Positions 21,358-55,802 of a stretch of 64,000 bases of DNA are shown here, piece by piece. Location: assembly GCA_023254095.1 (NCBI GenBank), contig JALNLM010000006.1, positions 28,146-92,145 on the forward strand. Direction: 5' to 3'. The notes below the pieces were generated by a model. It saw only the letters and a program-made list of their open reading frames with translations, was not told where the DNA came from and did no database searches. Position 1 is the stretch's first letter; the number at the start of each line of letters is the position of its first letter. The DNA comes from Candidatus Geocrenenecus huangii (GTDB lineage Archaea > Thermoproteota > Nitrososphaeria_A > Caldarchaeales > Wolframiiraptoraceae). Position numbers and translations under genes: made by a program.

Positions 21358-21963
21358 ATGGGAGTAGAGATATCATGCTTATATATTCGAGAGGTTAGGC
21401 TCAAGATAATGGTTGAGCTCCCACCAGGGCAGATGACTGCAAAAAGATGGAATATCTACGGTGCTTTAGGCACCCCTAAAGTAAACATAGATAACTGGCG
21501 TTTGAAAATCTCTGGATGCGTACACAACCCAATTGAACTTACCTACCAAGATCTTCTATCTCTAGAACAGACTAAAGTCAGAGGAGGTTTTCACTGCGTT
21601 GAGGGTTGGAGTATAATAGACGTATTGTGGGAAGGCGTAAAGATTAAGACTATCGCTGAGAAAGTATCATATCTCCAAGATTCTAAGTGGATGATCTTTA
21701 GAGGTGTTGAAGGATACTCTGCACCCGTACCAGTCGAATATGCTCTAAGCGAAGACTCTATCATAGCCATAAAGATGAACGGTAGACCTCTACCACTTGA
21801 GCATGGTTTTCCAGCACGTCCAATAATTCCAAGACTATATGCATGGAAGAGTGTAAAATGGTTGACGGAGATAGTCTTCAATCAAACATACGTTGATGGA
21901 TACTGGGAGGCAAGAGGCTACCATCCAAGAGGAGATGTATGGCTAGAAGAAAGAAGAAAATAA
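21358..21963 (+). CDS. Molybdopterin-dependent oxidoreductase, sulfite-oxidase family (YedY-like catalytic domain)
   Basis: 'GGFHCVEGWSIIDVLWEGV' Mo-domain Cys motif. The true start is probably at 'MVELPPG', about 21418. Confidence 0.7.
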   Translation: MGVEISCLYIREVRLKIMVELPPGQMTAKRWNIYGALGTPKVNIDNWRLKISGCVHNPIELTYQDLLSLEQTKVRGGFHCVEGWSIIDVLWEGVKIKTIAEKVSYLQDSKWMIFRGVEGYSAPVPVEYALSEDSIIAIKMNGRPLPLEHGFPARPIIPRLYAWKSVKWLTEIVFNQTYVDGYWEARGYHPRGDVWLEERRK

Positions 21964-27363: not shown

Positions 27364-28740
27364 GTGGAGGTTAGAAGACTTAGAACAGGTGTCGAAGGGC
27401 TGGACAAACTAATCCAGGGAGGTATACCTGAGGGTTTCTTCATAGCTGTAACAGGTGAACCAGGATGTGGAAAAACGATCTTCGCTATACACTTTATCTA
27501 TCAGGGTGTTCTCGATAATGATAAATCGATATACGTAACAACCGAGGAAAGTAGAGAATCGATAATAAAGCAGGCTTCCCAATTCAATATGGATTTCGAG
27601 AAGGCCATCCAAGAAAATAAACTAGTAGTTATTGATGCCCTAATGGGTAGAGAAGACAAATGGAGCTTGCAGAGCTTAGATCTCGAAGCATTGGTAGGTA
27701 GGATCATTGAAGCCAAGAGAGAACTCGGATATGGTAGAGCGAGAGTAGCGATAGATTCCATAAGCGCATTCTGGCTCGATAAACCTGCAATGGCTAGAAG
27801 ATACTCTTACTACGTTAAGAAAGTCTTATCAAAATGGAATTTTACGACTGTTGCAATAAGCCAATATGCAATAACAACTTCTCTCCCATATGATCAACCA
27901 ATACTAGTAAGGATAAGTGGGGAAGCGAGGACGGTGCAAATAGGTGATTTAGTAAACAAGCTAATATATGGTGCATCTCCATGGAGTATGGAGGTCGCCT
28001 GTCTCGATTGGAAAGACCTTAAGATTAAATGGGCGAAACCATGCTCGGTCATCAAACATTTGTACAGTGGATTAATCTACAAGATTAAACTACAGGATGG
28101 AAGAGAAGTCTCCGTTACGAGAGACCATAGTTTATTTGTTGTTAGGGACGGCAAAATAAAATGTGTTCCAACAAATGAAATTCGGATAGGCGATTACCTA
28201 TTGGTGCCAGCGAAGCATATTGATGAGGATAAGCGAGTCGGCAACCTTATAGGAGAACGCTTGCAACATGTGGGAGAGTACGTCTTTTCTCCTCCACGAT
28301 CTACTGGTCATTTACTCGGAAACAACGGAGAACTAGGCGATGCGAAGACATTAAGAGTTGAAGACATGGATGTTAGAAATGTTCTAGGAGTAGATGTCTA
28401 CGATATTTCTGTACTGGGTCTAGAAAACTTTATTGCAGGTGTAGGCGGAGTAGTCTGCCATAACTCTGAAGCATTTGGATGGGGGATAGAGCATATAGCG
28501 GATGGGATAATAAGATTTAGAAGGAGTATTAGGTCTGGAGAACTGAAAAGATATGTTCTCATAGAAAAGATGAGACAGACGAATCATAATAGATATCTAC
28601 ATGAGATAGACATTGTATCTGGTAAAGGACTAACCATACTAGGGCCAGTTGAGAGAAGAAGAGAAGATCTCAGTCTCCCTAAAGAGGTTTTTAAGAAGAT
28701 GATTGAATCTAGGAAGAAGGCAGAAGGAGAGATTCCCTGA
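27364..28740 (+). CDS. KaiC-like RecA-superfamily ATPase interrupted by a mini-intein
   Basis: Walker A 'GEPGCGKT'. KaiC-like 'VYVTTEES' and 'TTVAISQ' blocks. Extein resumes 'SEAFGWGIEHIADGIIRF'. Confidence 0.8.
   Translation: MEVRRLRTGVEGLDKLIQGGIPEGFFIAVTGEPGCGKTIFAIHFIYQGVLDNDKSIYVTTEESRESIIKQASQFNMDFEKAIQENKLVVIDALMGREDKWSLQSLDLEALVGRIIEAKRELGYGRARVAIDSISAFWLDKPAMARRYSYYVKKVLSKWNFTTVAISQYAITTSLPYDQPILVRISGEARTVQIGDLVNKLIYGASPWSMEVACLDWKDLKIKWAKPCSVIKHLYSGLIYKIKLQDGREVSVTRDHSLFVVRDGKIKCVPTNEIRIGDYLLVPAKHIDEDKRVGNLIGERLQHVGEYVFSPPRSTGHLLGNNGELGDAKTLRVEDMDVRNVLGVDVYDISVLGLENFIAGVGGVVCHNSEAFGWGIEHIADGIIRFRRSIRSGELKRYVLIEKMRQTNHNRYLHEIDIVSGKGLTILGPVERRREDLSLPKEVFKKMIESRKKAEGEIP
27880..28464 (+). 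mobile_element. Mini-intein (195 aa, Ser1...His-Asn / Ser+1) inside the KaiC-like ATPase
   Basis: Block A 'SLPYDQPILVRISGEARTVQIGDLV', block B 'TRDH', blocks F/G 'VYDISVLGLENFIAGVGGVVCHN' followed by S. No LAGLIDADG or HNH endonuclease motifs. Confidence 0.75.
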
Positions 28741-46254: not shown

Positions 46255-47721
46255 CTAGTCGAATACTAATGCGTTTCCTACCAGTTCATGAACCCCTCCA
46301 ACCGTAATGGGCATCTTATAGTGGTCAAAGTATTCAGTGAAAGCGGCTTTATCTATTGCACATATGCAGGCTAAGAAGTTTGCCCCAGTCCTCTTTATGG
46401 CCTCGATCTTCGGTTTAACGGCTTTAAGTCTTAACTCAATAGTCTCATCCGCGAGCAACCCCCCTCCAGCACAACAACATATTGTCTTCTCCCTGTTTAC
46501 GTTCGGGTCAAGTTCAACATAGTTTCTACAAACGTTCCTGAGTATGTATCTAGGTTCTTCTATCAACCCTAGGACTCTGGCTGGATTGCAGGAGTCATGA
46601 TACGTAACAATGTATTGATTGTTTGCGTCGGGGTTCAACTTTAGTTTTCCATGCTTTATCAAGTCTGCGGTGAACTCGCAGATATGGACCATCTTAGTAG
46701 ATGCAGCGTGTTCAAACTTGGTGCCTGTTACAGGTGAGATAGGCTCTTCTAAGAAATCTAGTGGTCCATTCATTGTATCCATGAACGCATGTATAACCCT
46801 CCACATATGTCCGCATTCTCCTCCAAGAATCCATTTAACACCAAGCCTCTTCGCCTCCTCTACAAGCTTCTTATTAATCTTCTTCATATGCTCGTATCCA
46901 AGCCAAGTCCCGAAATTGCCTCCTTCACTAGCATACGTGCTTATCGTATAGTCTAGCCCGATCTGGTGAAACATCTTTATTGCTCCCTTAAGTGTACCCC
47001 AATGTGGTCCTCCGAAAAAGTCGGCGGAAGGGGGAACATACAGTATCTCTGCACCCTTCTTGTTTATCGGTACTTTAACATCTATCCCAGTTTCTTCCTT
47101 GATCTCTTCTTCAGCGAATTGTATAGCGCTGAGGAGTGCTGCTGGAGGTATGCCCATATGGTTCCCTACTGTCTCACATTTCGCTATTGCCTCTGTTAGT
47201 GATCTTGGACTAAGCCCTATAGCTGTCAGAACCTCTCTAGCAGCGATCATTATCTCCGCAGTATCTATCCCGTACGGGCAGAAGACGGAACACCTTCTAC
47301 ATTGAGAACATTGATAGAAATAGGTATACCATAACTCGACTGTTTCTTCTGTAAGTTCTTCTGCCCCGACAAGTCCTCTGAATATCTTTCCCGTTAATGT
47401 AAAGTATCTCTTGTAGACAGACCTGAACAAGTCTTGTCTAGCTACAGGCATGTTATTTGGATCTAGAGTACCGAGAAAGAATGGACATTTATCTGTGCAT
47501 GCTCCGCATTTCACACAGATATCCAAGAACAGCTTTACAGACCTGAATTTATTTACTACTTCATTCATCTTCTTTAAAGCTATCTCTCTCCAGTCTGGTG
47601 GAAGATTGAATTGTGTATGACTCCACTCTCTTGGGAACGGTAGATTCAGGGTCTCCATATCACGTTTCCACGTAGCATAAAGTTTATACTTCCTCGCAGG
47701 TTGAGTAAGGTCTACTTTCAT
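46255..47721 (-). CDS. HdrD/DsrK-like iron-sulfur oxidoreductase (2x[4Fe-4S] ferredoxin + CCG domains)
   Basis: 'CVKCGACTDKCP' and 'CSQCRRCSVFCP' ferredoxin motifs. C-terminal Cys-rich 'CNPAR...CCCAGGG' CCG-type domain. Confidence 0.75.
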   Translation of the reverse strand: MKVDLTQPARKYKLYATWKRDMETLNLPFPREWSHTQFNLPPDWREIALKKMNEVVNKFRSVKLFLDICVKCGACTDKCPFFLGTLDPNNMPVARQDLFRSVYKRYFTLTGKIFRGLVGAEELTEETVELWYTYFYQCSQCRRCSVFCPYGIDTAEIMIAAREVLTAIGLSPRSLTEAIAKCETVGNHMGIPPAALLSAIQFAEEEIKEETGIDVKVPINKKGAEILYVPPSADFFGGPHWGTLKGAIKMFHQIGLDYTISTYASEGGNFGTWLGYEHMKKINKKLVEEAKRLGVKWILGGECGHMWRVIHAFMDTMNGPLDFLEEPISPVTGTKFEHAASTKMVHICEFTADLIKHGKLKLNPDANNQYIVTYHDSCNPARVLGLIEEPRYILRNVCRNYVELDPNVNREKTICCCAGGGLLADETIELRLKAVKPKIEAIKRTGANFLACICAIDKAAFTEYFDHYKMPITVGGVHELVGNALVFD

Positions 47722-48527
47722 CTTCTCTCGCCTCCCGGGCCGATAGTTTCAAGTTCCTCTTTAAACTTCTTGTAGTATTCCTCCCACGTGATTACCTCGA
47801 CGGGATAATTCCATGGATTTACATGTCTCCTCCATCTAGTTATATTTCTCATATTCCTAGTAGTAGATAGTATCCAGCCAATTAGATGTGATACTTTGCT
47901 AAATGGTATGTAGATGAATAGTATCTGTGCTAAGACGTAGTGTGTTATGAACCATATGTTCTCGGGGGGAGGAATAGGGTTAAATGTGAGGAGGCTATAC
48001 ATGTAGCTGCCTACAGATGCAACATCTACTAATCCGAAGCTTCTCATATACACTCCTAGAAACACTATTGTAATCAAGAGTATTAAGATTACGTAATCGC
48101 TCGTCTTCGAGATGTAACTCACGTTTGGGAGTACTAGTCTCCTGACTAAGAGAAAAGCTAATGTAGCTAGAAAGAATATGCCTGAGTATAGTACAGCCTC
48201 ATACCATCCATATCCAATTACTGACCAGAGGTCGTGGAAGTATACATTAATTATATGTGAGATCAATGTTATAGCTAAAGCTACGTGGAAGACATATCCA
48301 CCCAGCCATAGCTTTTTATTTCCTTTGAGCAAGCTTCGAAAAGTGAGTAAATCTAGTGACATTCTCTTTAATACGCCGGAATAGGTTATGGGGGCTGGAG
48401 CAACAGGCAACCTGAATGGAACAGGTACGGAGAGCCATCTAAGCACTCTGTATATTAGGCCTATTATTAAAGTGAAGAACGCTATGTACGGAGTTATATA
48501 TCCTATGATGAAGATTAGTGGGTCCAT
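47718..48527 (-). CDS. NarI-like membrane cytochrome b (DsrM/HdrE-like)
   Basis: Five TM helices with conserved His in TM2 and TM5 ('HVALAI', 'HYVLAQ'). The start overlaps the dsrK-like stop. Confidence 0.65.
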   Translation of the reverse strand: MDPLIFIIGYITPYIAFFTLIIGLIYRVLRWLSVPVPFRLPVAPAPITYSGVLKRMSLDLLTFRSLLKGNKKLWLGGYVFHVALAITLISHIINVYFHDLWSVIGYGWYEAVLYSGIFFLATLAFLLVRRLVLPNVSYISKTSDYVILILLITIVFLGVYMRSFGLVDVASVGSYMYSLLTFNPIPPPENIWFITHYVLAQILFIYIPFSKVSHLIGWILSTTRNMRNITRWRRHVNPWNYPVEVITWEEYYKKFKEELETIGPGGERR

Positions 48528-48791
48528 CTAGGTGGCACCTCCTTTAAGATACGTTAGTAACATTATCAGGATTATCATTCCTATGCCTGCAGCTATCCAT
48601 TCCTGGTCATAATCTTCGCTTCTATAATAGATATAAACTATCATGCTTAAGATGATTAAGCTTGAAGCAATATATCCTGCCGCCTGAATCTGCTGGGTCA
48701 CTATTATCGGGTTCACCACCCACGTTAGTACAGTTAATACGCCTTGAACGAGAAGTAGAACAACTAATATCACATCAACACTCTTAGCCAA
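48528..48791 (-). CDS. Small 2-3 TM protein, hypothetical subunit
   Basis: 87 aa, hydrophobic. Tightly packed between cytochrome b and the DsrM-like gene. Confidence 0.4.
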   Translation of the reverse strand: MAKSVDVILVVLLLVQGVLTVLTWVVNPIIVTQQIQAAGYIASSLIILSMIVYIYYRSEDYDQEWIAAGIGMIILIMLLTYLKGGAT

Positions 48792-50274
48792 TCCTAAACC
48801 ACCTCTCTAAAGCTTTAAACCTCTTCTCAAGGTTTCCAATCCTTAAATCTTCGAGATATATCGTCTTGAAGGCTTCTATGGTAGATAGTGCTAAGAGGAC
48901 TGACCCCAGCATAAGCCATACAGAGCCTATACTTTCGGTCAACGCTCCATAGATAATCCTAAATGATAAGCCTGCGCACATTATAGATAACAGGAACTTC
49001 ACAGCCGTCCATATATAATGTTTGGGATTTGGCCTCGTCTCCACCAAGTCTCTTATCTTCAGTTTACTAAACTTCTCCCATACTAGTTCAGGAGGCTTAA
49101 TGATCCTCAATCTATAGAGGTATGCAGCTAAGAATATTATTATTGTCGGGATTATTATGGAGAGTATTGCTACATCCGTAGGTATGTATGAGCCTGCGGT
49201 GGCCCAGGCTAGGTAGGTCATTAAGCCTACTTGGACTATTATCCAAGCCCCTATAGCTAGGAAGAATGGTCTCTCGGAGGGATGCCTGTCTTTCCATCTA
49301 TCTATGAATGGTAGGAATATGAAGATCAAGGTAATGATCATGAGTGTCGATACGAAGATATTGAAACCTGCTTCTCCCATCACCTCTATAAACTCCGTCT
49401 TAGCTATCGCGTAGGTCCACATGAAATACCACTCGGGCATAGGTATTGTGACGACTCCAGGAGTATATTTTTCATGTAGACCAAATGGATAAACTATTGA
49501 GGCGAACAGTATGGATGCAACGTAAACAGAAGCTATTATTACAAAGTATAAGAATACATTCGGAAACCATGGGACGAGCTTTTTTTCTTCTTCAGAGATG
49601 TATCTAGATACGGGTTCCGTTATTCCATGGACCTCGAATATGTGCAGCTTTATGGCTAGTAGTATTAGGAGCGTTGCAGGCAGTAGAACAGTATGGAATG
49701 TGAAGAATTTTCTCAGTAACTCTGCGTCCGTCCCATATCCTGAAATGACGTATTCTAGAAGACCGCTTAGAGGCTGAGGGAGATGTTTTATTATTGTTAT
49801 CCCGAATCCCACAGCTGCATATGAAAGAGCATACCATGGGAGAAGATAACCTGTGAAACCCATCATCAACGTGATTAAGCCCATGAGCATACCTACAATC
49901 CACATCAATTCTCTAGGTCTCCTGTAAGCAACCACAAAATAATTCCTCATAAAATGCAGGAACGAAACAAATATCATGGAGAAAGCTGAATATATGTGGA
50001 TGTTTCTTACGAGGTTTCCGAATGGGACCTCAACAATTATCCTGCTCACGGACTCCCATGCAGTATCGGGGTGGGGATCATAGTATTGGAGTAGGATTAT
50101 TCCAGCTATTCCCGCGGTGAAGAAAGCCAATACAGCAATCGCTCCAAGCCAGTATGAAGGATTTCTTAAAGAGTATTCAGGAGCGGGTCTCAAAATTGTT
50201 TTAGTAAAACCAAAATTTTCATCAAGCCAGCCAGCGAATCTATCGATAAGACTTTTTCTAGTCATGCCGGTCAC
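48784..50274 (-). CDS. Cytochrome b of a Rieske/cyt b (bc-type) complex, with C-terminal extra TM extension
   Basis: Qo-site 'PEWY' motif ('MPEWYFMW'). Conserved His pairs in helices B and D ('HIYSAF', 'FHTVLL'). About 12 TM, 496 aa. Confidence 0.75.
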   Translation of the reverse strand: MTGMTRKSLIDRFAGWLDENFGFTKTILRPAPEYSLRNPSYWLGAIAVLAFFTAGIAGIILLQYYDPHPDTAWESVSRIIVEVPFGNLVRNIHIYSAFSMIFVSFLHFMRNYFVVAYRRPRELMWIVGMLMGLITLMMGFTGYLLPWYALSYAAVGFGITIIKHLPQPLSGLLEYVISGYGTDAELLRKFFTFHTVLLPATLLILLAIKLHIFEVHGITEPVSRYISEEEKKLVPWFPNVFLYFVIIASVYVASILFASIVYPFGLHEKYTPGVVTIPMPEWYFMWTYAIAKTEFIEVMGEAGFNIFVSTLMIITLIFIFLPFIDRWKDRHPSERPFFLAIGAWIIVQVGLMTYLAWATAGSYIPTDVAILSIIIPTIIIFLAAYLYRLRIIKPPELVWEKFSKLKIRDLVETRPNPKHYIWTAVKFLLSIMCAGLSFRIIYGALTESIGSVWLMLGSVLLALSTIEAFKTIYLEDLRIGNLEKRFKALERWFRIG

Positions 50275-50275
50275 C

Positions 50276-50980
50276 TCATAATTTCTCTTCTAGAGTTACT
50301 TCTGAGACTAGTTTCTTGCCTAGCATTATCCTCTTCAACTCGTCGGGATTCGAAGAGCACTGAGTTACTCCGGGAACAGCTGGTGCTGGAGGGGCTAGCC
50401 CTAAAACGTAAATGTCCCCAGAAGCCTCATCATATTCTAAAACTACTCTACATAGACTACAGAATGGTGGTCCTGCGAGAACCTCACCATCTTTCTCAAG
50501 ATCATAGATTGCTGCGTGAGCTGGGCAATATAATAAATTCTTATCTGGATAAAGTTCTAGAATATTTGGTGGAACAGTCTTCAGATAAGTTAATTTTTCT
50601 GGTATTCTTTCTTCTTTCGGTGGAATATAAATAGTCCCGTAATATCTAGCGTGCTGGCATATCATGACGTATGCGACTATATCTTTGTCAGGGCCTATCC
50701 CTGACGGAATATTTTTCCCAGTCTTGACAACTAGACATGGAATATCCCTCGTAGGATAAGAGAACAAGTACCACGTTTTAGGTTTAATATCTTTAATATT
50801 CGCTAACCTGACTCGAGGCCATTCAGGGATTTCTAGAATAGCTGGAGTAATAGATTTTAAGAGTGGAGCCGCACTACCGAGACCTAGAATAAAGGAGAGG
50901 GCCGTGATAAATTTAAGAGTAGTCCTTCTACCTGTCGATATTTCATCCTTGCCATGCTCCTCATGAGCCAACTTGATCAC
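50276..50980 (-). CDS. Rieske [2Fe-2S] protein with twin-arginine signal
   Basis: Tat motif 'GRRTTLKF'. Rieske boxes 'CQHARY' and 'CPAHAAIYD'. Both boxes lack the disulfide cysteines. Confidence 0.65.
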   Translation of the reverse strand: MIKLAHEEHGKDEISTGRRTTLKFITALSFILGLGSAAPLLKSITPAILEIPEWPRVRLANIKDIKPKTWYLFSYPTRDIPCLVVKTGKNIPSGIGPDKDIVAYVMICQHARYYGTIYIPPKEERIPEKLTYLKTVPPNILELYPDKNLLYCPAHAAIYDLEKDGEVLAGPPFCSLCRVVLEYDEASGDIYVLGLAPPAPAVPGVTQCSSNPDELKRIMLGKKLVSEVTLEEKL

Positions 50981-51018
50981 CTAAACATACATTAGGAAAA
51001 ATGTATTCGGTAGCTATT

Positions 51019-51351
51019 CTAGACGCAGCCTGTAGGCTTTGGCAACCCTGCTACTTTACAAGCACCCTTCGCAGGTCCTGAAGGGAAGAGTTCATAGATT
51101 TTCTGGAGGGAGAATCCTGTCTGTTTTACAAGCATCCTTATTGGTGGAGCTACACCATATTTCTGCCAGTATTCCCTTAAGTAGTTTATTACCTTCCAAT
51201 GTTCATCAGTCAGTTTCTCCACGCCTTCGAAATGTTTTGCGAAGAATTCTGCAACCTCCGGGCTCCATTTCTCAGGTTCTTGGAGGAAACCGTCTTCATC
51301 TACTTCAAGCTTCTGTCCTTTAAACTCTACATGAGGCATGATCTTTTCCAC
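51019..51351 (-). CDS. dsrC: DsrC-family protein (both conserved C-terminal cysteines)
   Basis: C-terminus 'GACKVAGLPKPTGCV' is the diagnostic DsrC tail, with CysB and penultimate CysA. Confidence 0.8.
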   Translation of the reverse strand: MEKIMPHVEFKGQKLEVDEDGFLQEPEKWSPEVAEFFAKHFEGVEKLTDEHWKVINYLREYWQKYGVAPPIRMLVKQTGFSLQKIYELFPSGPAKGACKVAGLPKPTGCV

Positions 51352-51554: not shown

Positions 51555-52826
51555 TTACTCTGCTAAGTCATAGAAATATATCTTTAAAAGATTGAATAGT
51601 TGCTGCTTATCCACTATTTTATAGTTTTTTCTAAGGTTCTCTATTAGAGGGTTAAGTATCCTCTTAACTATTGCTTTAGACATGTCTTGAATAACCTCTT
51701 TACTTTTTTCATCAATCTGAATGTGTCTCATCATAGACATCGCCTCTTCAACCTCCTCCAATCGAACTCTCTCTGCATAACAACATATCTTAGAGATCAA
51801 TTCATCAACCCATACAGTTTCAATTCTCTCCTTGAACTTCGCTACGCAGTCTTCAATGAATTCTTCAATTTTTTCTAATTCTTTAACTCTATCATATACT
51901 GATGTATCTACGTACTCTCGGAGACCGTCTAACGTTATGAGTTTCACGTTTTTAAGATGTGAAACATTGGGATCAACATTCCTTGGAACCGATAAATCTA
52001 TAATCATGAGAGGCTTACTTCTCTCCTGAACAGCTTCCTCTACTTTTCCTCTAGTCAAGATGTAATGTGGTGCGGAAGTCGTAACGAATACCGCGTCTGC
52101 TATCTTCAGATAATTTTCTATTTGGTCTAATTTTAGAGCGATTCCACCACTTAGATTAGCTAGTTGTATGGCCTTCTCATATGTTCTATTTGCGAACAGT
52201 AATGTTATCTTTCTATAATTTTTCTCCATTAACGCGGAGTTTACTAGCTCACCTGTCTCTCCAGCACCTATGATAAGGATTACTTTGTCATTCAGATTTT
52301 TTAATACTTTCTCAACTACCTCGACTGCAACATGAGCTAAGCTTAACCTCTTTCTACTAATCTCAGTCGTAGACCTAACCTTCTTTCCTACTCTAATCGC
52401 TTCTTGAAAAACCATCTTGAGGAGCTGAGATAAACTATTATTAGTTAACCCTCTGTAGAATGCTTCTTTTACTTGACGTAGGATCTCTTGTTCTCCCACC
52501 ACCATTGACTCGAGTCCAGACGCTAATCTGAACAAATGCCTAACTACATCAACATCCTGTATCAATAGGATGTTTATTTTGAGTTCTGAATCTCCAGTCA
52601 GGTCTTCCCATACACTCAGTATGTCTTCTACAACTTTCTCGTCTGCCGAATCAAGGTATACCTCGACACGGTTACATGTTTGCAGTATTGCTACCCCCTC
52701 GACTCCATCAATGTTCTTGAATAATTTGAGAGCCAGCTCTAGGTCTTTGAAGAAGGCTTTCTCCAGCCTAGATATAGGCAGTTGCTTATGTGTAAGGAGG
52801 AGACCGTGAAGAGAGTTCAGAGACAT
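51555..52826 (-). CDS. hemA: Glutamyl-tRNA reductase
   Basis: 'LQTCNRVEVY' catalytic Cys block and 'IIGAGETGEL' NADPH site. Confidence 0.9.
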   Translation of the reverse strand: MSLNSLHGLLLTHKQLPISRLEKAFFKDLELALKLFKNIDGVEGVAILQTCNRVEVYLDSADEKVVEDILSVWEDLTGDSELKINILLIQDVDVVRHLFRLASGLESMVVGEQEILRQVKEAFYRGLTNNSLSQLLKMVFQEAIRVGKKVRSTTEISRKRLSLAHVAVEVVEKVLKNLNDKVILIIGAGETGELVNSALMEKNYRKITLLFANRTYEKAIQLANLSGGIALKLDQIENYLKIADAVFVTTSAPHYILTRGKVEEAVQERSKPLMIIDLSVPRNVDPNVSHLKNVKLITLDGLREYVDTSVYDRVKELEKIEEFIEDCVAKFKERIETVWVDELISKICCYAERVRLEEVEEAMSMMRHIQIDEKSKEVIQDMSKAIVKRILNPLIENLRKNYKIVDKQQLFNLLKIYFYDLAE

Positions 52827-52928
52827 ATCATCATCAGCTACACATTAAATAGCCTATGGTCCCTAAAAAGCTTCTACATTACGTTGAGTACTATGATATA
52901 TTTTAATTCTAGGTTTAAAAAATACTTT

Positions 52929-53750
52929 ATGATGCCATACGTGAATAACGAAATCTATTATGAAGTCTACGGAGAAGGCAGACCACTAATGTTAATCCAC
53001 GGTGCATGGGCTTCTCATGAATGGTGGAGAATGCAGATCCCTGAATTCTCCAAGAAGTATAAAGTGATTGCTATTGATGTTAGAGGCCATGGGAAGTCTG
53101 CTAGATTGGAGAAGCCTACAACTGTTCAGAAACTTGCAGAAGACGTTGACAAGGTCTTAAACACTTTGGGTATCAGTGAAATCGTACTAGTAGGTTGGTC
53201 GATGGGTGGCATGTTATCTACTCAATACTACTTTGAACATCCCGAAAAAGTTAAAGGACTAGTATTGATTTCGAGTAGACTGCATAAAAGACCTAGGATG
53301 CTCATAGAAGCTTACTTAAGAACAATACGTGAAATGTTCACACTCTTTATGGATTTCGCAGACTTTGAAGGTTTCGAATCATTAAAGTATGAAGATGAGG
53401 TGAAGAAAGAAGTTCAAAAAATGTTTTCATCATCCACTGACCCGGAGATCATTAGATGGGCTATTGAAGACCTGACAAAGAATAGGCGGAGAGATTACAT
53501 AAACATTGTTAAAACGCTGGCCAAATACGATGCATCGGATAAGCTTCACATGATTAAAGTACCAATGCTTATAATTGTTGGAGACAAGGATGAGAGAACA
53601 CCTCCTGAATTCGCTAAAAAGATACATGAGAAGGTCCCTCACTCCAAGCTCATCATAATTGAAGGCTACGGGCATTACATGCTAATTGAGAGGCCGGATA
53701 TTGTTAATAAAGAGATAATAGACTTCTTGCAGAGTATAGGTTATCGTTGA
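52929..53750 (+). CDS. Alpha/beta hydrolase fold protein
   Basis: 'LIHGAWASHEWW' and nucleophile elbow 'GWSMGG'. Start set at the internal Met: the longest ORF starts at 52782 but overlaps hemA. Confidence 0.7.
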   Translation: MMPYVNNEIYYEVYGEGRPLMLIHGAWASHEWWRMQIPEFSKKYKVIAIDVRGHGKSARLEKPTTVQKLAEDVDKVLNTLGISEIVLVGWSMGGMLSTQYYFEHPEKVKGLVLISSRLHKRPRMLIEAYLRTIREMFTLFMDFADFEGFESLKYEDEVKKEVQKMFSSSTDPEIIRWAIEDLTKNRRRDYINIVKTLAKYDASDKLHMIKVPMLIIVGDKDERTPPEFAKKIHEKVPHSKLIIIEGYGHYMLIERPDIVNKEIIDFLQSIGYR

Positions 53751-55123
53751 CTCATATGAGGCCACATCATTAACTTCCTGAAAACCTCAGCATTATGTAA
53801 AACGTGGATATGAGTATACATTGCTAGAAGATTCTCTTTCATGACTCCATCATGTATCCCATCTACACCATATCCTCTCTCAACCTTGAAAGCAAAATCC
53901 ACATCTTCTTTTAGGACTAAGCGAGAATGATGGAATTCATGACCTACTAAACTTTGATTGAGGCTTGTTAGAGGATTATCTTTTATCGTTGATAGGTAAA
54001 CGTATCCATGGCCTACCGGTCTCCTATACATCTCGACGTATCCATCAATCAACCCGGCCATCATGTATTCTCCTCCATCAAAAGCTATAACTCTCTCTGA
54101 GAGATAGATTAACCCCCCACATTCTGCATAGATTTTTAATCCACCTTCATACTTCTTCTTGATATCTTTTTTCAGGGGTTTGTTCTTCTCAAGTAAACTG
54201 GCATAGACTTCCGGGAACCCTCCCCCAATATAGAGTAAATCAATATCTGGAAGTGATGAATCATTAACTGAGTCTATGTAGTATACTCTGTCGGCAACGG
54301 TCTCGAAATACTCAATATTCTCAGGGTAATAGAATGAGAATATCTTATCTCTAATAACTCCTATCCTTATACTGCATCTAGTCATGGGATAGAGTTCCTC
54401 GAAGCTAGCTGGACATATCTCATCCACGTTTGAAGCTATCTCAACTATTTTATCTACATCTATCTGTTGACCGACACTCTTTATAGCTTGTATTATTTCC
54501 TTTATCTCTCCGACCCTCTCAGATGTCGGGACTAGCCCTAAATGTCTGTAACCCATCTTTGATTTAATGATGTCGCTTCTATGAATAACACCAACGATCT
54601 CGAGTCCATTAAATTTTTCTCTAAAAGCCTTAACTATTTTTTCTCCTTGTCTTTCATTTGCTACATTATTTACTATTATCCCACCAATCTTCACACTCCT
54701 ATCGAATTCTAGGAATCCCTTAACAATGGCTAGTAGCCCTCTATTAATTCTTTCTGCATCGACGATCAAGACGACGGGTGCTTTAAGGATCTTCGATAAC
54801 TCTGCTGTACTTCCTCTCTCCGTTACCCCGTCCACGCTATCGTAAAGTCCTAGAACTCCTTCTATCACCCCGATGTCTGAGTTTCTCATTGCTCTACAGA
54901 ATGAATTGATAATAGCTTCTTTTCTGAACATTACTGCATCAAGATTACGTGAAGGCCTACTCGAGAAGATGTTGTGATAAGATGGGTCTATAAAGTCAGG
55001 ACCGACCTTGAACGGTTGAACCCTGTATCCGCGTTCAGCAAGTAGGCTGATAATAGCAGACGTAGCCACAGTCTTCCCTATCTTACCGCTGACCCCTGAG
55101 ATGATTATCCTAGGCTTATTCAT
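53741..55123 (-). CDS. cbiA: Cobyrinate (or sirohydrochlorin-type) a,c-diamide synthase, CbiA/CobB family
   Basis: N-terminal P-loop 'SGVSGKIGKT' ATPase domain plus a C-terminal glutamine amidotransferase domain ('AECGG'). Confidence 0.85.
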   Translation of the reverse strand: MNKPRIIISGVSGKIGKTVATSAIISLLAERGYRVQPFKVGPDFIDPSYHNIFSSRPSRNLDAVMFRKEAIINSFCRAMRNSDIGVIEGVLGLYDSVDGVTERGSTAELSKILKAPVVLIVDAERINRGLLAIVKGFLEFDRSVKIGGIIVNNVANERQGEKIVKAFREKFNGLEIVGVIHRSDIIKSKMGYRHLGLVPTSERVGEIKEIIQAIKSVGQQIDVDKIVEIASNVDEICPASFEELYPMTRCSIRIGVIRDKIFSFYYPENIEYFETVADRVYYIDSVNDSSLPDIDLLYIGGGFPEVYASLLEKNKPLKKDIKKKYEGGLKIYAECGGLIYLSERVIAFDGGEYMMAGLIDGYVEMYRRPVGHGYVYLSTIKDNPLTSLNQSLVGHEFHHSRLVLKEDVDFAFKVERGYGVDGIHDGVMKENLLAMYTHIHVLHNAEVFRKLMMWPHMSQR

Positions 55124-55802
55124 TTTCTCTAATCCCTTTAATTTCTAATCCGTACTTCCTCAATATGTTTCTTAATATTCTTTCAGCGTCATGGACACTG
55201 CCTGATCTTAATGCGTTCCTTAAGTCATCGTTATGATAGACTTGGTAATATATCTTCATCCTGGTTTCGGGATCTGAAATACTCCTTCTTACGATTCTCT
55301 TAACCTCGTGTATCATTTCTGCTAGCCTGACCAATTCTTGCTCTCCACTAAGATAATTCACGATTCTCTGTAACGCTTCTCTCGCAACCATGCTACTCCT
55401 ACCTTCGGTAGTTACAGCAATTCTAAATGGGCCGACCGAGGAATCTATCGGTACGACGACATCTGTTCCCTCAGCATTGTTGGCTAGATTCAGTAACGAT
55501 TTATGTTTTCTAGCAATCCTCGATATCAGGTCATTATATTCTTCTGTATCTAGCGTAACCATAACGATATCCGATGATTTAATAAATTCTTCAAGTTTAT
55601 CTACTTCATCAACATCTCCCTCAACCAACTCAATGAAACCGTTACGGCCAAGCTCGACTATCTTTTCATCAAAGCTTCTACTATATACTATTACCCTACC
55701 GCCAGTTTTAGAATATTTTTCAGCCCTCTTCGCGCCTTCTCTTCCACCGCCAATAATCAGTATTGTCTTATTTGACAGCTCGATGAAAAACGGCATCCTC
55801 AT
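55116..55802 (-). CDS. sirC: Precorrin-2 dehydrogenase / sirohydrochlorin ferrochelatase (CysG-N/Met8-like)
   Basis: 'ILIIGGGREGAKRA' NAD-binding motif. 228 aa. Overlaps cbiA. Confidence 0.75.
   Translation of the reverse strand: MRMPFFIELSNKTILIIGGGREGAKRAEKYSKTGGRVIVYSRSFDEKIVELGRNGFIELVEGDVDEVDKLEEFIKSSDIVMVTLDTEEYNDLISRIARKHKSLLNLANNAEGTDVVVPIDSSVGPFRIAVTTEGRSSMVAREALQRIVNYLSGEQELVRLAEMIHEVKRIVRRSISDPETRMKIYYQVYHNDDLRNALRSGSVHDAERILRNILRKYGLEIKGIRENE

Follow-up and report, generated by a model that had tools for sequence, protein, structure and literature searches.

Why would an archaeon encode a Rieske protein and a cytochrome b in one operon with DsrC and DsrMK, and where would the electrons of such a module go? 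The question is raised by a six-gene operon of Candidatus Geocrenenecus huangii (GenBank assembly GCA_023254095.1, contig JALNLM010000006.1), which lies within the stretch of 64,000 nucleotides (nt), positions 28,146 to 92,145, that was analysed here and is called the window. DsrAB and DsrC together form a DsrC-trisulfide, which DsrMK(JOP) reduces with electrons from menaquinol; DsrMK is regarded as the minimal module, and DsrJOP is missing in Gram-positive and archaeal reducers (PMC10861901). A reading made from the sequence alone had proposed that the operon encodes a functional quinol:DsrC electron-transfer unit, and this proposal is supported here by deep conservation of gene order and by fusion of the block with ferredoxin (fd) and dsrAB genes in some lineages. 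We put slightly short of an even chance on the reading in which the Rieske protein, the cytochrome b, and a small membrane protein would form a dedicated quinol-oxidising module feeding electrons through DsrM and DsrK to the DsrC-trisulfide, in analogy to DsrJOP.

Organisation of the operon

Six minus-strand open reading frames (ORFs) in the ORF list span 46255-51351 and, as first described, overlap or abut one another. From 5' to 3' they encode DsrC, the Rieske protein, cytochrome b (cytb in gene strings), the small membrane protein that follows cytochrome b (sTM), DsrM, and DsrK (Table 1). Successive genes are 38, 1, -8, 0, and -4 nt apart, and because they overlap or abut from the Rieske gene onward, these genes are translationally coupled. 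In annotations of metagenome-assembled genomes (MAGs), DsrC, the Rieske protein, and cytochrome b start 3-4 codons inside the longest ORFs; the start of dsrC is likely the ATG at 51339, four codons in, which gives a protein of 106 amino acids (aa), as in the MAG gene calls. TATA-like and oligo-T features were judged by eye, the host being archaeal. The GTG with which the dsrC ORF begins is preceded, ~20 nt upstream, by the TATA-like sequence TATATTTAT, whose position suggests that dsrC has a promoter of its own and a leader that is short or absent.

DsrC, DsrK, and DsrM

DsrC matches PF04358 (2.9e-38, 131 bits, cut-off 24.9) and TIGR03342 (5.8e-38, 129.6 bits, cut-off 53.5) and scores 82 bits on the TusE equivalog, for which the cut-off is 191. 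The tail carries Cys98 and Cys109 of 110 residues in ...GACKVAGLPKPTGCV, that is, the penultimate cysteine and another 11 residues before it, and is identical or near-identical across all dsr-linked lineages compared. By these profiles and cysteines the protein is a bona fide DsrC with both redox cysteines, as had been recognised from its sequence, as opposed to a TusE/RspA-like protein.

DsrK matches the NCBIfam DsrK equivalog NF045796 at 1.7e-181 and 603.8 bits (cut-off 400), the next-best models being TmcB (191 bits) and HmcF (151 bits). Its sequence holds two ferredoxin-type CxxCxxCxxxC motifs (69 and 138) and, at 415-421, CCCAGGG; its Pfam matches are Fer4_8 (2.5e-12) and CCG (7.8e-06). 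A succinate dehydrogenase, fumarate reductase, or GlpC (Sdh/Frd/GlpC) identity for the CCG and NarI proteins, which would have spoken against a DsrK/DsrM assignment, was rejected on scores of 16-28 bits against cut-offs of 228-280. The GlpC models gave 28.3 and 22.0 bits, the SdhB-type models 16-20 bits, and TfrB 43 bits, all far under their cut-offs. An Hdr identity of the two proteins was also rejected. In HdrDE of cytochrome-containing methanogens, a NarI-like dihaem cytochrome b and a CCG subunit likewise reduce a cytoplasmic S-S bond, drawing electrons from a carrier in the membrane (PMC10861901), but the CCG protein of the operon reaches at most 43 bits on HdrD/TfrB-type models, against its DsrK score, and is encoded together with DsrC. 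The NCBIfam scores thus uphold the original view of both subunits as DsrK- and DsrM-type proteins.

DsrM matches Nitrate_red_gam (PF02665) at 2.9e-15 and 56.9 bits. Its best NCBIfam match by far is DsrM (9.9e-52), with a score of 176.1 bits that lies below the cut-off of 300 of a model built on DsrMKJOP-type proteins; the alignment places 257 residues across 296 model positions and fits a shorter protein of the DsrM-1 type. In DsrMKJOP, two Arg and a loop in transmembrane helix 3 (TMH3) block the quinol site of the NarI type in DsrM; the 'DsrM-1' proteins of DsrMK-only systems look NarI-like, with an open quinol site (bioRxiv 10.64898/2026.08.25.746951). In the DsrM of the operon, H81/H91 and H196/H214 align with the four haem histidines of Escherichia coli NarI (H56/H66 and H187/H205), TMH3 aligns to NarI without insertion, and the outer part of TMH2-TMH3 contains no Arg or Pro. 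The occlusion features described for DsrMKJOP-type DsrM, or 'DsrM-2' (two conserved Arg together with a loop inserted in TMH3, or else a Pro that breaks the helix), were taken from the same preprint (bioRxiv 10.64898/2026.08.25.746951) and applied as a pattern-level test with no DsrM-2 reference sequence; the operon's DsrM lacks them. A locus tried as such a reference (L172; L-numbers denote the loci compared) was rejected, as it proved to be a DsrMK-only bacterial locus with an unrelated Rieske gene of its own. The single-sequence AlphaFold2 (AF2) model of DsrM was unusable (pLDDT 56, pTM 0.25), with a continuous helix predicted at 102-131. Taken from alignment and motifs, DsrM appears to be a short, NarI-like protein of the DsrM-1 type that can probably oxidise quinol itself. 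The Rieske/cytochrome b module is therefore not obviously needed as the sole quinol site.

The Rieske protein, cytochrome b, and sTM

The cluster ligands of the Rieske protein, C108-x-H110 and C152-x-x-H155, are invariant in the family alignment. Its score on the Pfam Rieske model, 17.5, is under the gathering score of 20.3; the Rieske fold is accepted despite this because of sequence matches to AioB (8.5e-18) and Sulfolobus SoxF (3.8e-11) in a phmmer search of PDB sequences and because of the structural match to AioB (Foldseek TM 0.75-0.85, with a core pLDDT of 85-95 in the AF2 model). An insertion of ~17 aa separates the two cluster boxes. The twin-arginine motif noticed earlier, TGRRTTLKF, is present, with R18 and R19 invariant, and is followed by a hydrophobic helix; AF2 places an N-terminal helix at 18-43 with low confidence. 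At the level of motifs, the protein is predicted to be exported by twin-arginine translocation (Tat) and to be anchored in the membrane.

Both disulfide cysteines of the cluster boxes are replaced (CQHARYYGT compared with CQHLGC, and CPAH compared with CPCH). The alignment confirms this part of the sequence-only reading, but a disulfide-less, low-potential cluster is not a hallmark of the system: the other dsr-linked Rieske proteins retain CQHLGC/CPCH, which rules out the absence of the disulfide as its defining feature. Judged from the alignment, the loss is derived and confined to the Geocrenenecus-like clade. That clade has gained conserved cysteines elsewhere in the Rieske protein (PPFC174SLC177 after the Pro loop and VTQC208S in the C-terminal extension), and C174, C177, and C208 might form a disulfide in its place. 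Among the PDB matches, too, there are AioB proteins that lack the bridge: an engineered one (Af Aio C65F-C80G) and that of NT-26, for which the title of an F108C-G123C mutant implies Phe and Gly at these positions.

A second feature of the Rieske protein is shared by the whole dsr-linked group. In all dsr-linked Rieske proteins, CPxH is followed by Ala or Gly and not by Ser. Ser at this position raises the potential, as bc1 mutants indicate. Ala or Gly would therefore be expected to give a lowered-potential cluster, as in menaquinol-oxidising complexes, suited to a chain with a low-potential acceptor.

The cytochrome b matches Cytochrome_B (4.3e-30), Cytochrom_B_N_2 (6.2e-31), and Cytochrom_B_C (4.1e-06) in Pfam. 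It joins a b6-like N-terminal domain to a subunit-IV-like domain that carries PEWY, and it ends in additional helices; ~9-10 segments are hydrophobic. H93, H107, H194, H211, and H216 are invariant, as is the PEWY motif (280-283) by which the protein had first been identified. Helix D has the unusual spacing H194-x16-H211, plus H216, in 13 of the 13 relatives aligned; elsewhere the spacing is H-x13-H (classical bc1) or H-x14-H (b6).

The sTM protein, 87 aa in length, has three hydrophobic segments and no Cys or His. A homologue of 83-87 aa follows cytochrome b in every dsr-linked lineage (28-78% identity), and another does so in non-dsr relatives from Thermoplasmata and Nitrososphaerales. Because it is kept in these relatives, sTM is part of the Rieske/cytochrome b module and not of Dsr.

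Conservation of gene order in dsr-linked lineages

Loci were surveyed by context look-ups and by a metagenome scan seeded with the Rieske alignment, and lineage taxonomy follows the labels of the public records. The Rieske family is small: there are 13 close clusters, and an exhaustive search of 1.84 billion representatives gave only 2 matches at E<=1e-30 and 32 at E<=1e-10. Homologues of cytochrome b form nine clusters at 68-100% identity, after which none exceeds 48%.

The comparison of gene neighbourhoods that was suggested with the sequence-only reading shows dsrC-Rieske-cytb-sTM, in this order, in six or more lineages of archaea that have diverged from one another and come from hot springs and peat. 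In Geocrenenecus-like loci (L001-L008 and L102-L108), dsrMK follows directly after sTM. A hot-spring assembly (L113) has the string dsrC-Rieske-cytb-sTM-dsrM-dsrK-fd-dsrA-dsrB, and L180 has a string of this type plus a CGGC protein before fd-dsrAB. Four JGI metagenome contigs (L114-L117, which are Ga0074044, Ga0256914, Ga0187782, and Ga0187769) have dsrC-Rieske-cytb-sTM-dsrM-dsrK and then an M3/K3 pair; we take the Ga01877xx contig series to be from peatland. A further arrangement, dsrC-Rieske-cytb-sTM-fd-dsrA-dsrB ... hemA-dsrM-dsrK-M3/K3, is found in L009, L101 (labelled Thermoprotei), L118, and L119. The dsrC gene lies immediately upstream of the Rieske gene in every lineage for which there is upstream sequence, except L112, where Rieske-cytb-sTM-CGGC-dsrM stands beside a molybdoenzyme.

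Between lineages, identities are 70-83% for DsrC, 65-78% for DsrK, 48-60% for DsrM, 42-57% for cytochrome b, 39-65% for the Rieske protein, and 28-46% for sTM. Because gene order has been kept through this divergence, the block is old and has been co-inherited with dsrC, dsrMK, and dsrAB, and conservation of the arrangement across lineages whose proteins are only 28-81% identical excludes chance adjacency.

Other genes recur in or near these clusters. A CGGC-domain protein (PF08821) is found in the dsr-Rieske clusters of L009, L101, L112, L118, and L180 (L180:5670-6053), and a YeiH-family membrane protein and a radical-SAM/SPASM protein recur near dsrAB in several lineages. In L112 (617-5033, 5209-8958), a 913-aa molybdopterin oxidoreductase, its 4Fe-4S subunit, and a TorD/NarJ-like chaperone are encoded divergently upstream of Rieske-cytb-sTM-CGGC-dsrM, and dsrC is absent there. 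Some Geocrenenecus loci (L001 798-1184) likewise carry a NarJ-like gene, at a distance of a few kb upstream of the operon.

dsrAB and the direction of the pathway

Searching the 64-kb window by tblastn with DsrA and DsrB of relatives found no dsrAB, which rules out a dsrAB beside the operon in this genome. DsrK identical to that of the window is on record in 48 blocks, and the 24 contigs examined include hot-spring MAGs labelled Nitrososphaerota. In one assembly, GCA_038871835.1, the identical DsrK is on contig JAVZHD010000012.1, and dsrA and dsrB are on JAVZHD010000015.1. Whether the genome holds dsrAB elsewhere had been raised at the outset, and it is in this assembly that the genes were found. 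Gene calls split dsrB into two parts there (194 and 206 aa); in six other assemblies it is intact (357 aa). On the same contig are a 70-aa ORF after dsrB with a weak DsrD Pfam match, a ferredoxin gene, a second pair of NarI and CCG genes (302 and 536 aa), a gene for a TauE-family protein, and tetrapyrrole genes. In sister species, the operon is ~6 kb from dsrM2K2-dsrAB, with sirC-like, CbiA-like, and uroporphyrinogen methylase genes in between. The presence of dsrAB in the same organism, and near the operon in sister species, argues for an ordinary DsrAB-DsrC pathway and not for use of DsrC without DsrAB.

The DsrA of these assemblies clusters at >=90% identity with the DsrA of Ca. Geocrenenecus dongiae and arthurdayi. 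Geocrenenecus belongs to the Wolframiiraptoraceae in the Caldarchaeales, formerly Aigarchaeota group 5 (PMC9246946), and Aigarchaeota JZ bin_15 is known to carry dsrAB (PMC6053391). Firmicutes enzymes are 61-65% identical to Geocrenenecus DsrAB, and the DsrAB of the Thermoprotei-type lineage is nearer, at 67-70%.

These genes bear on the direction in which the pathway runs. In an oxidative or disproportionating direction, DsrAB would oxidise the sulfane sulfur of DsrC, DsrK and DsrM would pass the electrons to quinone, and the Rieske/cytochrome b module would deliver them to a high-potential acceptor. An oxidative chain would naturally place a quinone reductase (DsrMK) and a quinol oxidase (Rieske/cytochrome b) in one operon, Dsr systems elsewhere are known to be reversible (PMC10861901), and some dsr-carrying Nitrososphaeria have been described as microaerophiles (PMC10833072). 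We nevertheless regard this direction as improbable. The nearest relatives of DsrA and DsrB are reductive bacterial-type (Firmicutes-like) enzymes at 61-70% identity (see also PMC6053391), the ORF after dsrB has its weak match to DsrD, the Pfam families listed for these loci include no dsrEFH-like genes, nothing nearby encodes an acceptor for the Rieske protein, and the Wolframiiraptoraceae are described as anaerobic (PMC9246946). Sulfite reduction would be the direction in keeping with these observations.

Two further DsrK paralogues, K2 and K3, are encoded next to dsrAB and score 309 and 339 bits on the DsrK model; both are under 400, and only the DsrK of the Rieske operon, of the three DsrK-like paralogues, clears the cut-off. 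The third NarI-like/CCG pair (302-306 and 536-539 aa; L096:5346-7866, L101:20082-21464) adjoins dsrAB in the species of the window and dsrMK in the Thermoprotei-type lineage. In its NarI-like member Trp replaces the second haem His of TMH2, and this protein may bind one haem only. Its CCG member, at 339 bits, stays under the cut-off of the DsrK model.

The electron acceptor and non-dsr relatives

No ORF with CxxCH is present in the nine dsr-Rieske loci checked, and the window has two CxxCH matches only, in a radical-SAM protein and in a ribosomal zinc-ribbon protein. No dsr-linked locus encodes an outward-facing acceptor subunit (cytochrome c1/f/cc, cupredoxin, or haem-b protein). The listed neighbours include no NrfD-like family, and DsrJOP-type genes were not found with dsrMK in these loci, whole genomes lying outside the comparison. 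On these gene assignments, the distal DsrM haem is the only outward-facing redox cofactor predicted to be encoded in the dsr-linked operons.

The nearest non-dsr relatives (L120-L132, L137, and L012, a Thermoplasmata MAG) offer a comparison. Their operon has the order EB_dh-Rieske-cytb-86-aa sTM (e.g. L123:5578-9023), in which a protein matching PF09459 (9.9e-22), with a C-terminal anchor, takes the place that dsrC has in dsr-linked operons. No match to this EB_dh protein was found in the window or in any dsr-linked locus. It is probably the outward-facing haem-b acceptor of the non-dsr operons. The two kinds of operon belong to one family: the Rieske proteins share 44-53% identity with the L101 type, and the 86-aa subunit is conserved. 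They differ in that the presumed acceptor of the EB_dh operons is an outward b-haem protein, not a cytochrome c, whereas the dsr-linked operons have dsrC at that position and dsrMK after the module. SoxLN-CbsAB of Sulfolobus is another archaeal Rieske/cytochrome b operon with a b-type haem acceptor. A scan with the cytochrome b alignment, using a pattern (FTGYLLPW) that is universal to cytochromes b, gave no dsr-linked locus in at least 80, among the matches listed.

Two other groups of loci came to light. Locus L172 (L172:1-10040, Ga0105104_10004209) has dsrB-dsrC-dsrM-dsrK, with DsrM of 247 aa and DsrK of 481 aa. Past dsrK, where assignments were read by eye from the translations, come a small protein with two Cys-x2-Cys-His motifs and a Rieske protein (201 aa, CTHLGC/CPCH), and further on a 124-aa protein with one CxxCH (a putative mono-haem cytochrome c), a 789-aa molybdopterin-oxidoreductase-like protein, and a 4Fe-4S-type protein. 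By its sequence, the locus represents a second, independent Rieske gene beside dsrMK. In MAGs of Chloroflexota/Anaerolineales (L030:455-7220, L024:9638-13493, also L044 and L081), a Rieske/cytochrome b operon encodes a cytochrome b with CxxCH in an N-terminal extension, a subunit IV with PEWY, and a Rieske protein, and then a 632-640-aa fusion of a NarI-like membrane domain, an Fe-S domain, and two CCG domains; in L030, the gene for an Fe-S protein comes next, and then that for an SdhA-like flavoprotein. The arrangement looks like a succinate dehydrogenase/fumarate reductase with a NarI-CCG anchor, encoded with Rieske/cytochrome b.

A possible route from menaquinol to the DsrC-trisulfide

We propose that the operon represents the membrane end of sulfite respiration, with the Rieske/cytochrome b/sTM module recruited to DsrC-DsrMK. 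Menaquinol would be oxidised at the Qo site of cytochrome b (PEWY), at the outer face of the membrane. One electron would pass to the cluster of the Tat-exported Rieske protein and from there to the outer haem of DsrM, a step that we propose because the DsrM haem is the only outward-facing cofactor in these clusters. The two DsrM haems would then carry the electron through the membrane and on to the Fe-S clusters of DsrK in the cytoplasm, and DsrK would reduce the DsrC-trisulfide made by DsrAB, with release of sulfide. The second electron would be recycled through the two b haems to the Qi site in a Q cycle, so that the charge yield per electron would be above that of DsrMK alone.

This scheme is supported by the tight operon, the recurring gene order, the orthodox DsrK, the presence of dsrAB in the organism, the lack of another encoded acceptor, the Ala or Gly after CPxH, and the precedent of DsrMKJOP. 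In the cryo-EM structure of DsrMKJOP, quinol is oxidised at DsrP, and the electrons travel from DsrO to DsrJ, DsrM, and DsrK, entering DsrM on its outer side (bioRxiv 10.64898/2026.08.25.746951). DsrMKJOP of Archaeoglobus fulgidus and of Desulfovibrio/Nitratidesulfovibrio shares with the operon the core of DsrM (dihaem b) and DsrK (non-cubane Fe-S, acting on the DsrC-trisulfide), and in both cases a second, outward-facing quinone-reactive module is encoded alongside. That second module consists of DsrJ (trihaem c), DsrO (Fe-S), and DsrP (NrfD-like) in DsrMKJOP, but of a Rieske protein, a cytochrome b, and the 87-aa subunit here, and the operon's DsrM is, in contrast to its DsrMKJOP counterpart, short and NarI-like with no TMH3 insertion. 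A Rieske/cytochrome b module also offers a Q-cycle mechanism, whereas DsrJOP does not. In its most specific form, the scheme would amount to one Q-cycle menaquinol:DsrC-trisulfide supercomplex in which the Rieske protein reduces the outer DsrM haem, moving about two charges per electron instead of one; we advance this form tentatively, and from sequence, as possible but doubtful.

Several points weigh against the scheme. No potential is known for the DsrC-trisulfide, and the favourability of its reduction by menaquinol is uncertain (PMC10861901). A Q cycle combined with transmembrane transfer would need roughly twice the driving force. DsrM is without the occlusion features, so DsrMK may oxidise quinol with no partner. 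Finally, the L009/L101 lineage has fd-dsrAB and other genes between sTM and dsrMK, so that the two modules are not co-translated everywhere.

Some of these points would suit a different arrangement, in which the operon encodes two separate, co-regulated complexes: DsrMK would oxidise menaquinol alone, as has been suggested for organisms that have DsrMK only, and the Rieske/cytochrome b/sTM module would serve an acceptor encoded elsewhere (a cupredoxin, an oxidase, a nitrate reductase, or an extracellular acceptor), the genes being held together by a shared respiratory regulon or a mobile dsr island. A NarI-like DsrM with no sign of an occluded quinol site, the non-adjacent modules of L009/L101, and the members of the Rieske/cytochrome b family that occur without Dsr in Thermoplasmata (EB_dh-linked) and Nitrososphaerales would all be accommodated. 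We judge the arrangement unlikely, although it is a serious contender, because dsrC is directly upstream of the Rieske gene in all lineages with upstream sequence bar L112, two lineages (L113 and L180) have the whole set including dsrAB as a single string, the ~20 loci examined contain no alternative acceptor gene, and the coupling of sTM to dsrM (0-nt gap) and of dsrM to dsrK exceeds what linkage at the level of a regulon would entail.

The presence of two quinone-reactive cytochromes b in one operon also brings to mind bifurcation at the Qo site, with the b-haem chain of cytochrome b giving DsrK a low-potential electron and the Rieske electron passing through DsrM to quinone or another acceptor. 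However, DsrK partners DsrM in every known system, and dsrM and dsrK overlap here; nothing suggests a docking site for DsrK on cytochrome b; and an extra high-potential sink would be needed, of which none is encoded nearby. We consider such bifurcation very improbable and retain the transfer from the Rieske protein through DsrM to DsrK as the preferred reading.

Neighbouring genes

Genes with a possible link to tetrapyrrole supply lie upstream of the operon (Table 1). The hemA gene shares its strand with dsrC, lies 203 nt upstream of it, and would have an accessory role in supplying tetrapyrrole, and hemA is also found within the dsr clusters of the L009/L101 lineage. The CbiA-like gene is, from its context, a candidate DsrN (sirohaem amidase), and in every member of the clade it adjoins the sirohaem synthase-type gene. 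All Geocrenenecus-like loci have an alpha/beta-hydrolase gene on the opposite strand (window 52782-53750, +) between this CbiA-like gene and the dsrC operon, with no obvious link to sulfur or tetrapyrrole metabolism. Farther away, a 201-aa protein with a sulfite-oxidase-type molybdopterin domain (window 21358-21963, +; Oxidored_molyb, 6.9e-40) may bear on sulfite handling alongside the Dsr pathway. The window also encodes a KaiC-like ATPase split by an intein (27364-28740, +; Intein_splicing, 2.8e-19).

Table 1. Operon genes and tetrapyrrole-related neighbours, in window coordinates
Feature	Coordinates	Strand	Basis
dsrC	51019..51351	-	DsrC profiles and two tail Cys
Rieske gene	50276..50980	-	Cluster ligands and AioB/SoxF matches
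Cytochrome b gene	48784..50274	-	496 aa; Pfam N-/C-domains and PEWY
sTM gene	48528..48791	-	87 aa; three hydrophobic segments; overlaps cytochrome b end by 8 nt
dsrM	47718..48527	-	NarI-type; 0-nt gap to sTM gene
dsrK	46255..47721	-	488 aa; NF045796 match; overlaps dsrM by 4 nt
hemA (glutamyl-tRNA reductase)	51555..52826	-	GlutR_N/Shikimate_DH/GlutR_dimer in identical loci
CbiA/CobB-family a,c-diamide synthase	53741..55123	-	TIGR00379 482.9 bits; CfbB 438.9, below cut-off 560
Sirohaem synthase N-terminal-domain protein (precorrin-2 dehydrogenase/ferrochelatase type)	55116..55802	-	TIGR01470 67.7 bits vs 62.3

Relation to known systems and significance

Every part of the operon comes from a known family, and only the combination is without a counterpart in the literature searched. 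A Rieske/cytochrome b quinol oxidase is reportedly operon-linked to an anaerobic reductase in haloarchaeal pNar (NarB/NarC) and in nitrate-reductase clusters of Methanoperedens. The acceptor in those cases is an outward-facing molybdoenzyme, whereas here it would be cytoplasmic, and the electrons would re-cross the membrane through DsrM. DsrMK-only systems of Bacillota and archaea share with the present one the set of DsrAB, DsrC, DsrMK, and a DsrN-like protein, several DsrMK-like paralogues per genome, and a NarI-like DsrM (PMC10504309, PMC10861901), but here the orthodox dsrMK is translationally coupled to Rieske/cytochrome b. We found no link between Rieske and dsr genes in the literature on dsr synteny and diversity (PMC10504309, PMC10591310, PMC12948486) or in that on genomes of Aigarchaeota, Nitrososphaeria, and Wolframiiraptoraceae (PMC6053391, PMC10833072, PMC9246946). 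Papers naming both 'Rieske' and 'dsrC' concern, among the matches listed, cable bacteria, Sulfolobales, and community surveys, with subscription-only papers not covered. An earlier description of the arrangement as a named complex, which would have refuted the sequence-only reading, was not found in the dsr and Caldarchaeales literature searched.

The module may serve these archaea in place of the DsrJOP module of bacteria. Energy conservation in dissimilatory sulfite and sulfate reduction is under debate, and so are the role of DsrJOP, its advantage over DsrMK alone, and the thermodynamics of trisulfide reduction by menaquinol (PMC10861901; bioRxiv 10.64898/2026.08.25.746951), and the recent preprint, in asking what advantage DsrJOP confers, suggests additional proton translocation (bioRxiv 10.64898/2026.08.25.746951). 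A natural alternative module could help with all three points. The Q cycle of Rieske/cytochrome b complexes is understood in detail and has specific inhibitors, which would give a direct handle on whether additional charge translocation has selected for the elaboration of DsrMK. If the proposed route is correct in its supercomplex form, it would be an archaeal solution to energy coupling in sulfite reduction, independent of DsrJOP, and the first Rieske/cytochrome b complex whose electrons end at a cytoplasmic sulfur-reducing site. The finding would also enlarge the list of Rieske/cytochrome b electron acceptors by a new kind of partner. The dsrC-Rieske-cytb-sTM block provides a marker set for uncultured archaeal sulfite reducers of hot springs and peat, and it bears on the ancestral archaeal Dsr gene set, which is currently DsrABCMK(N) only.

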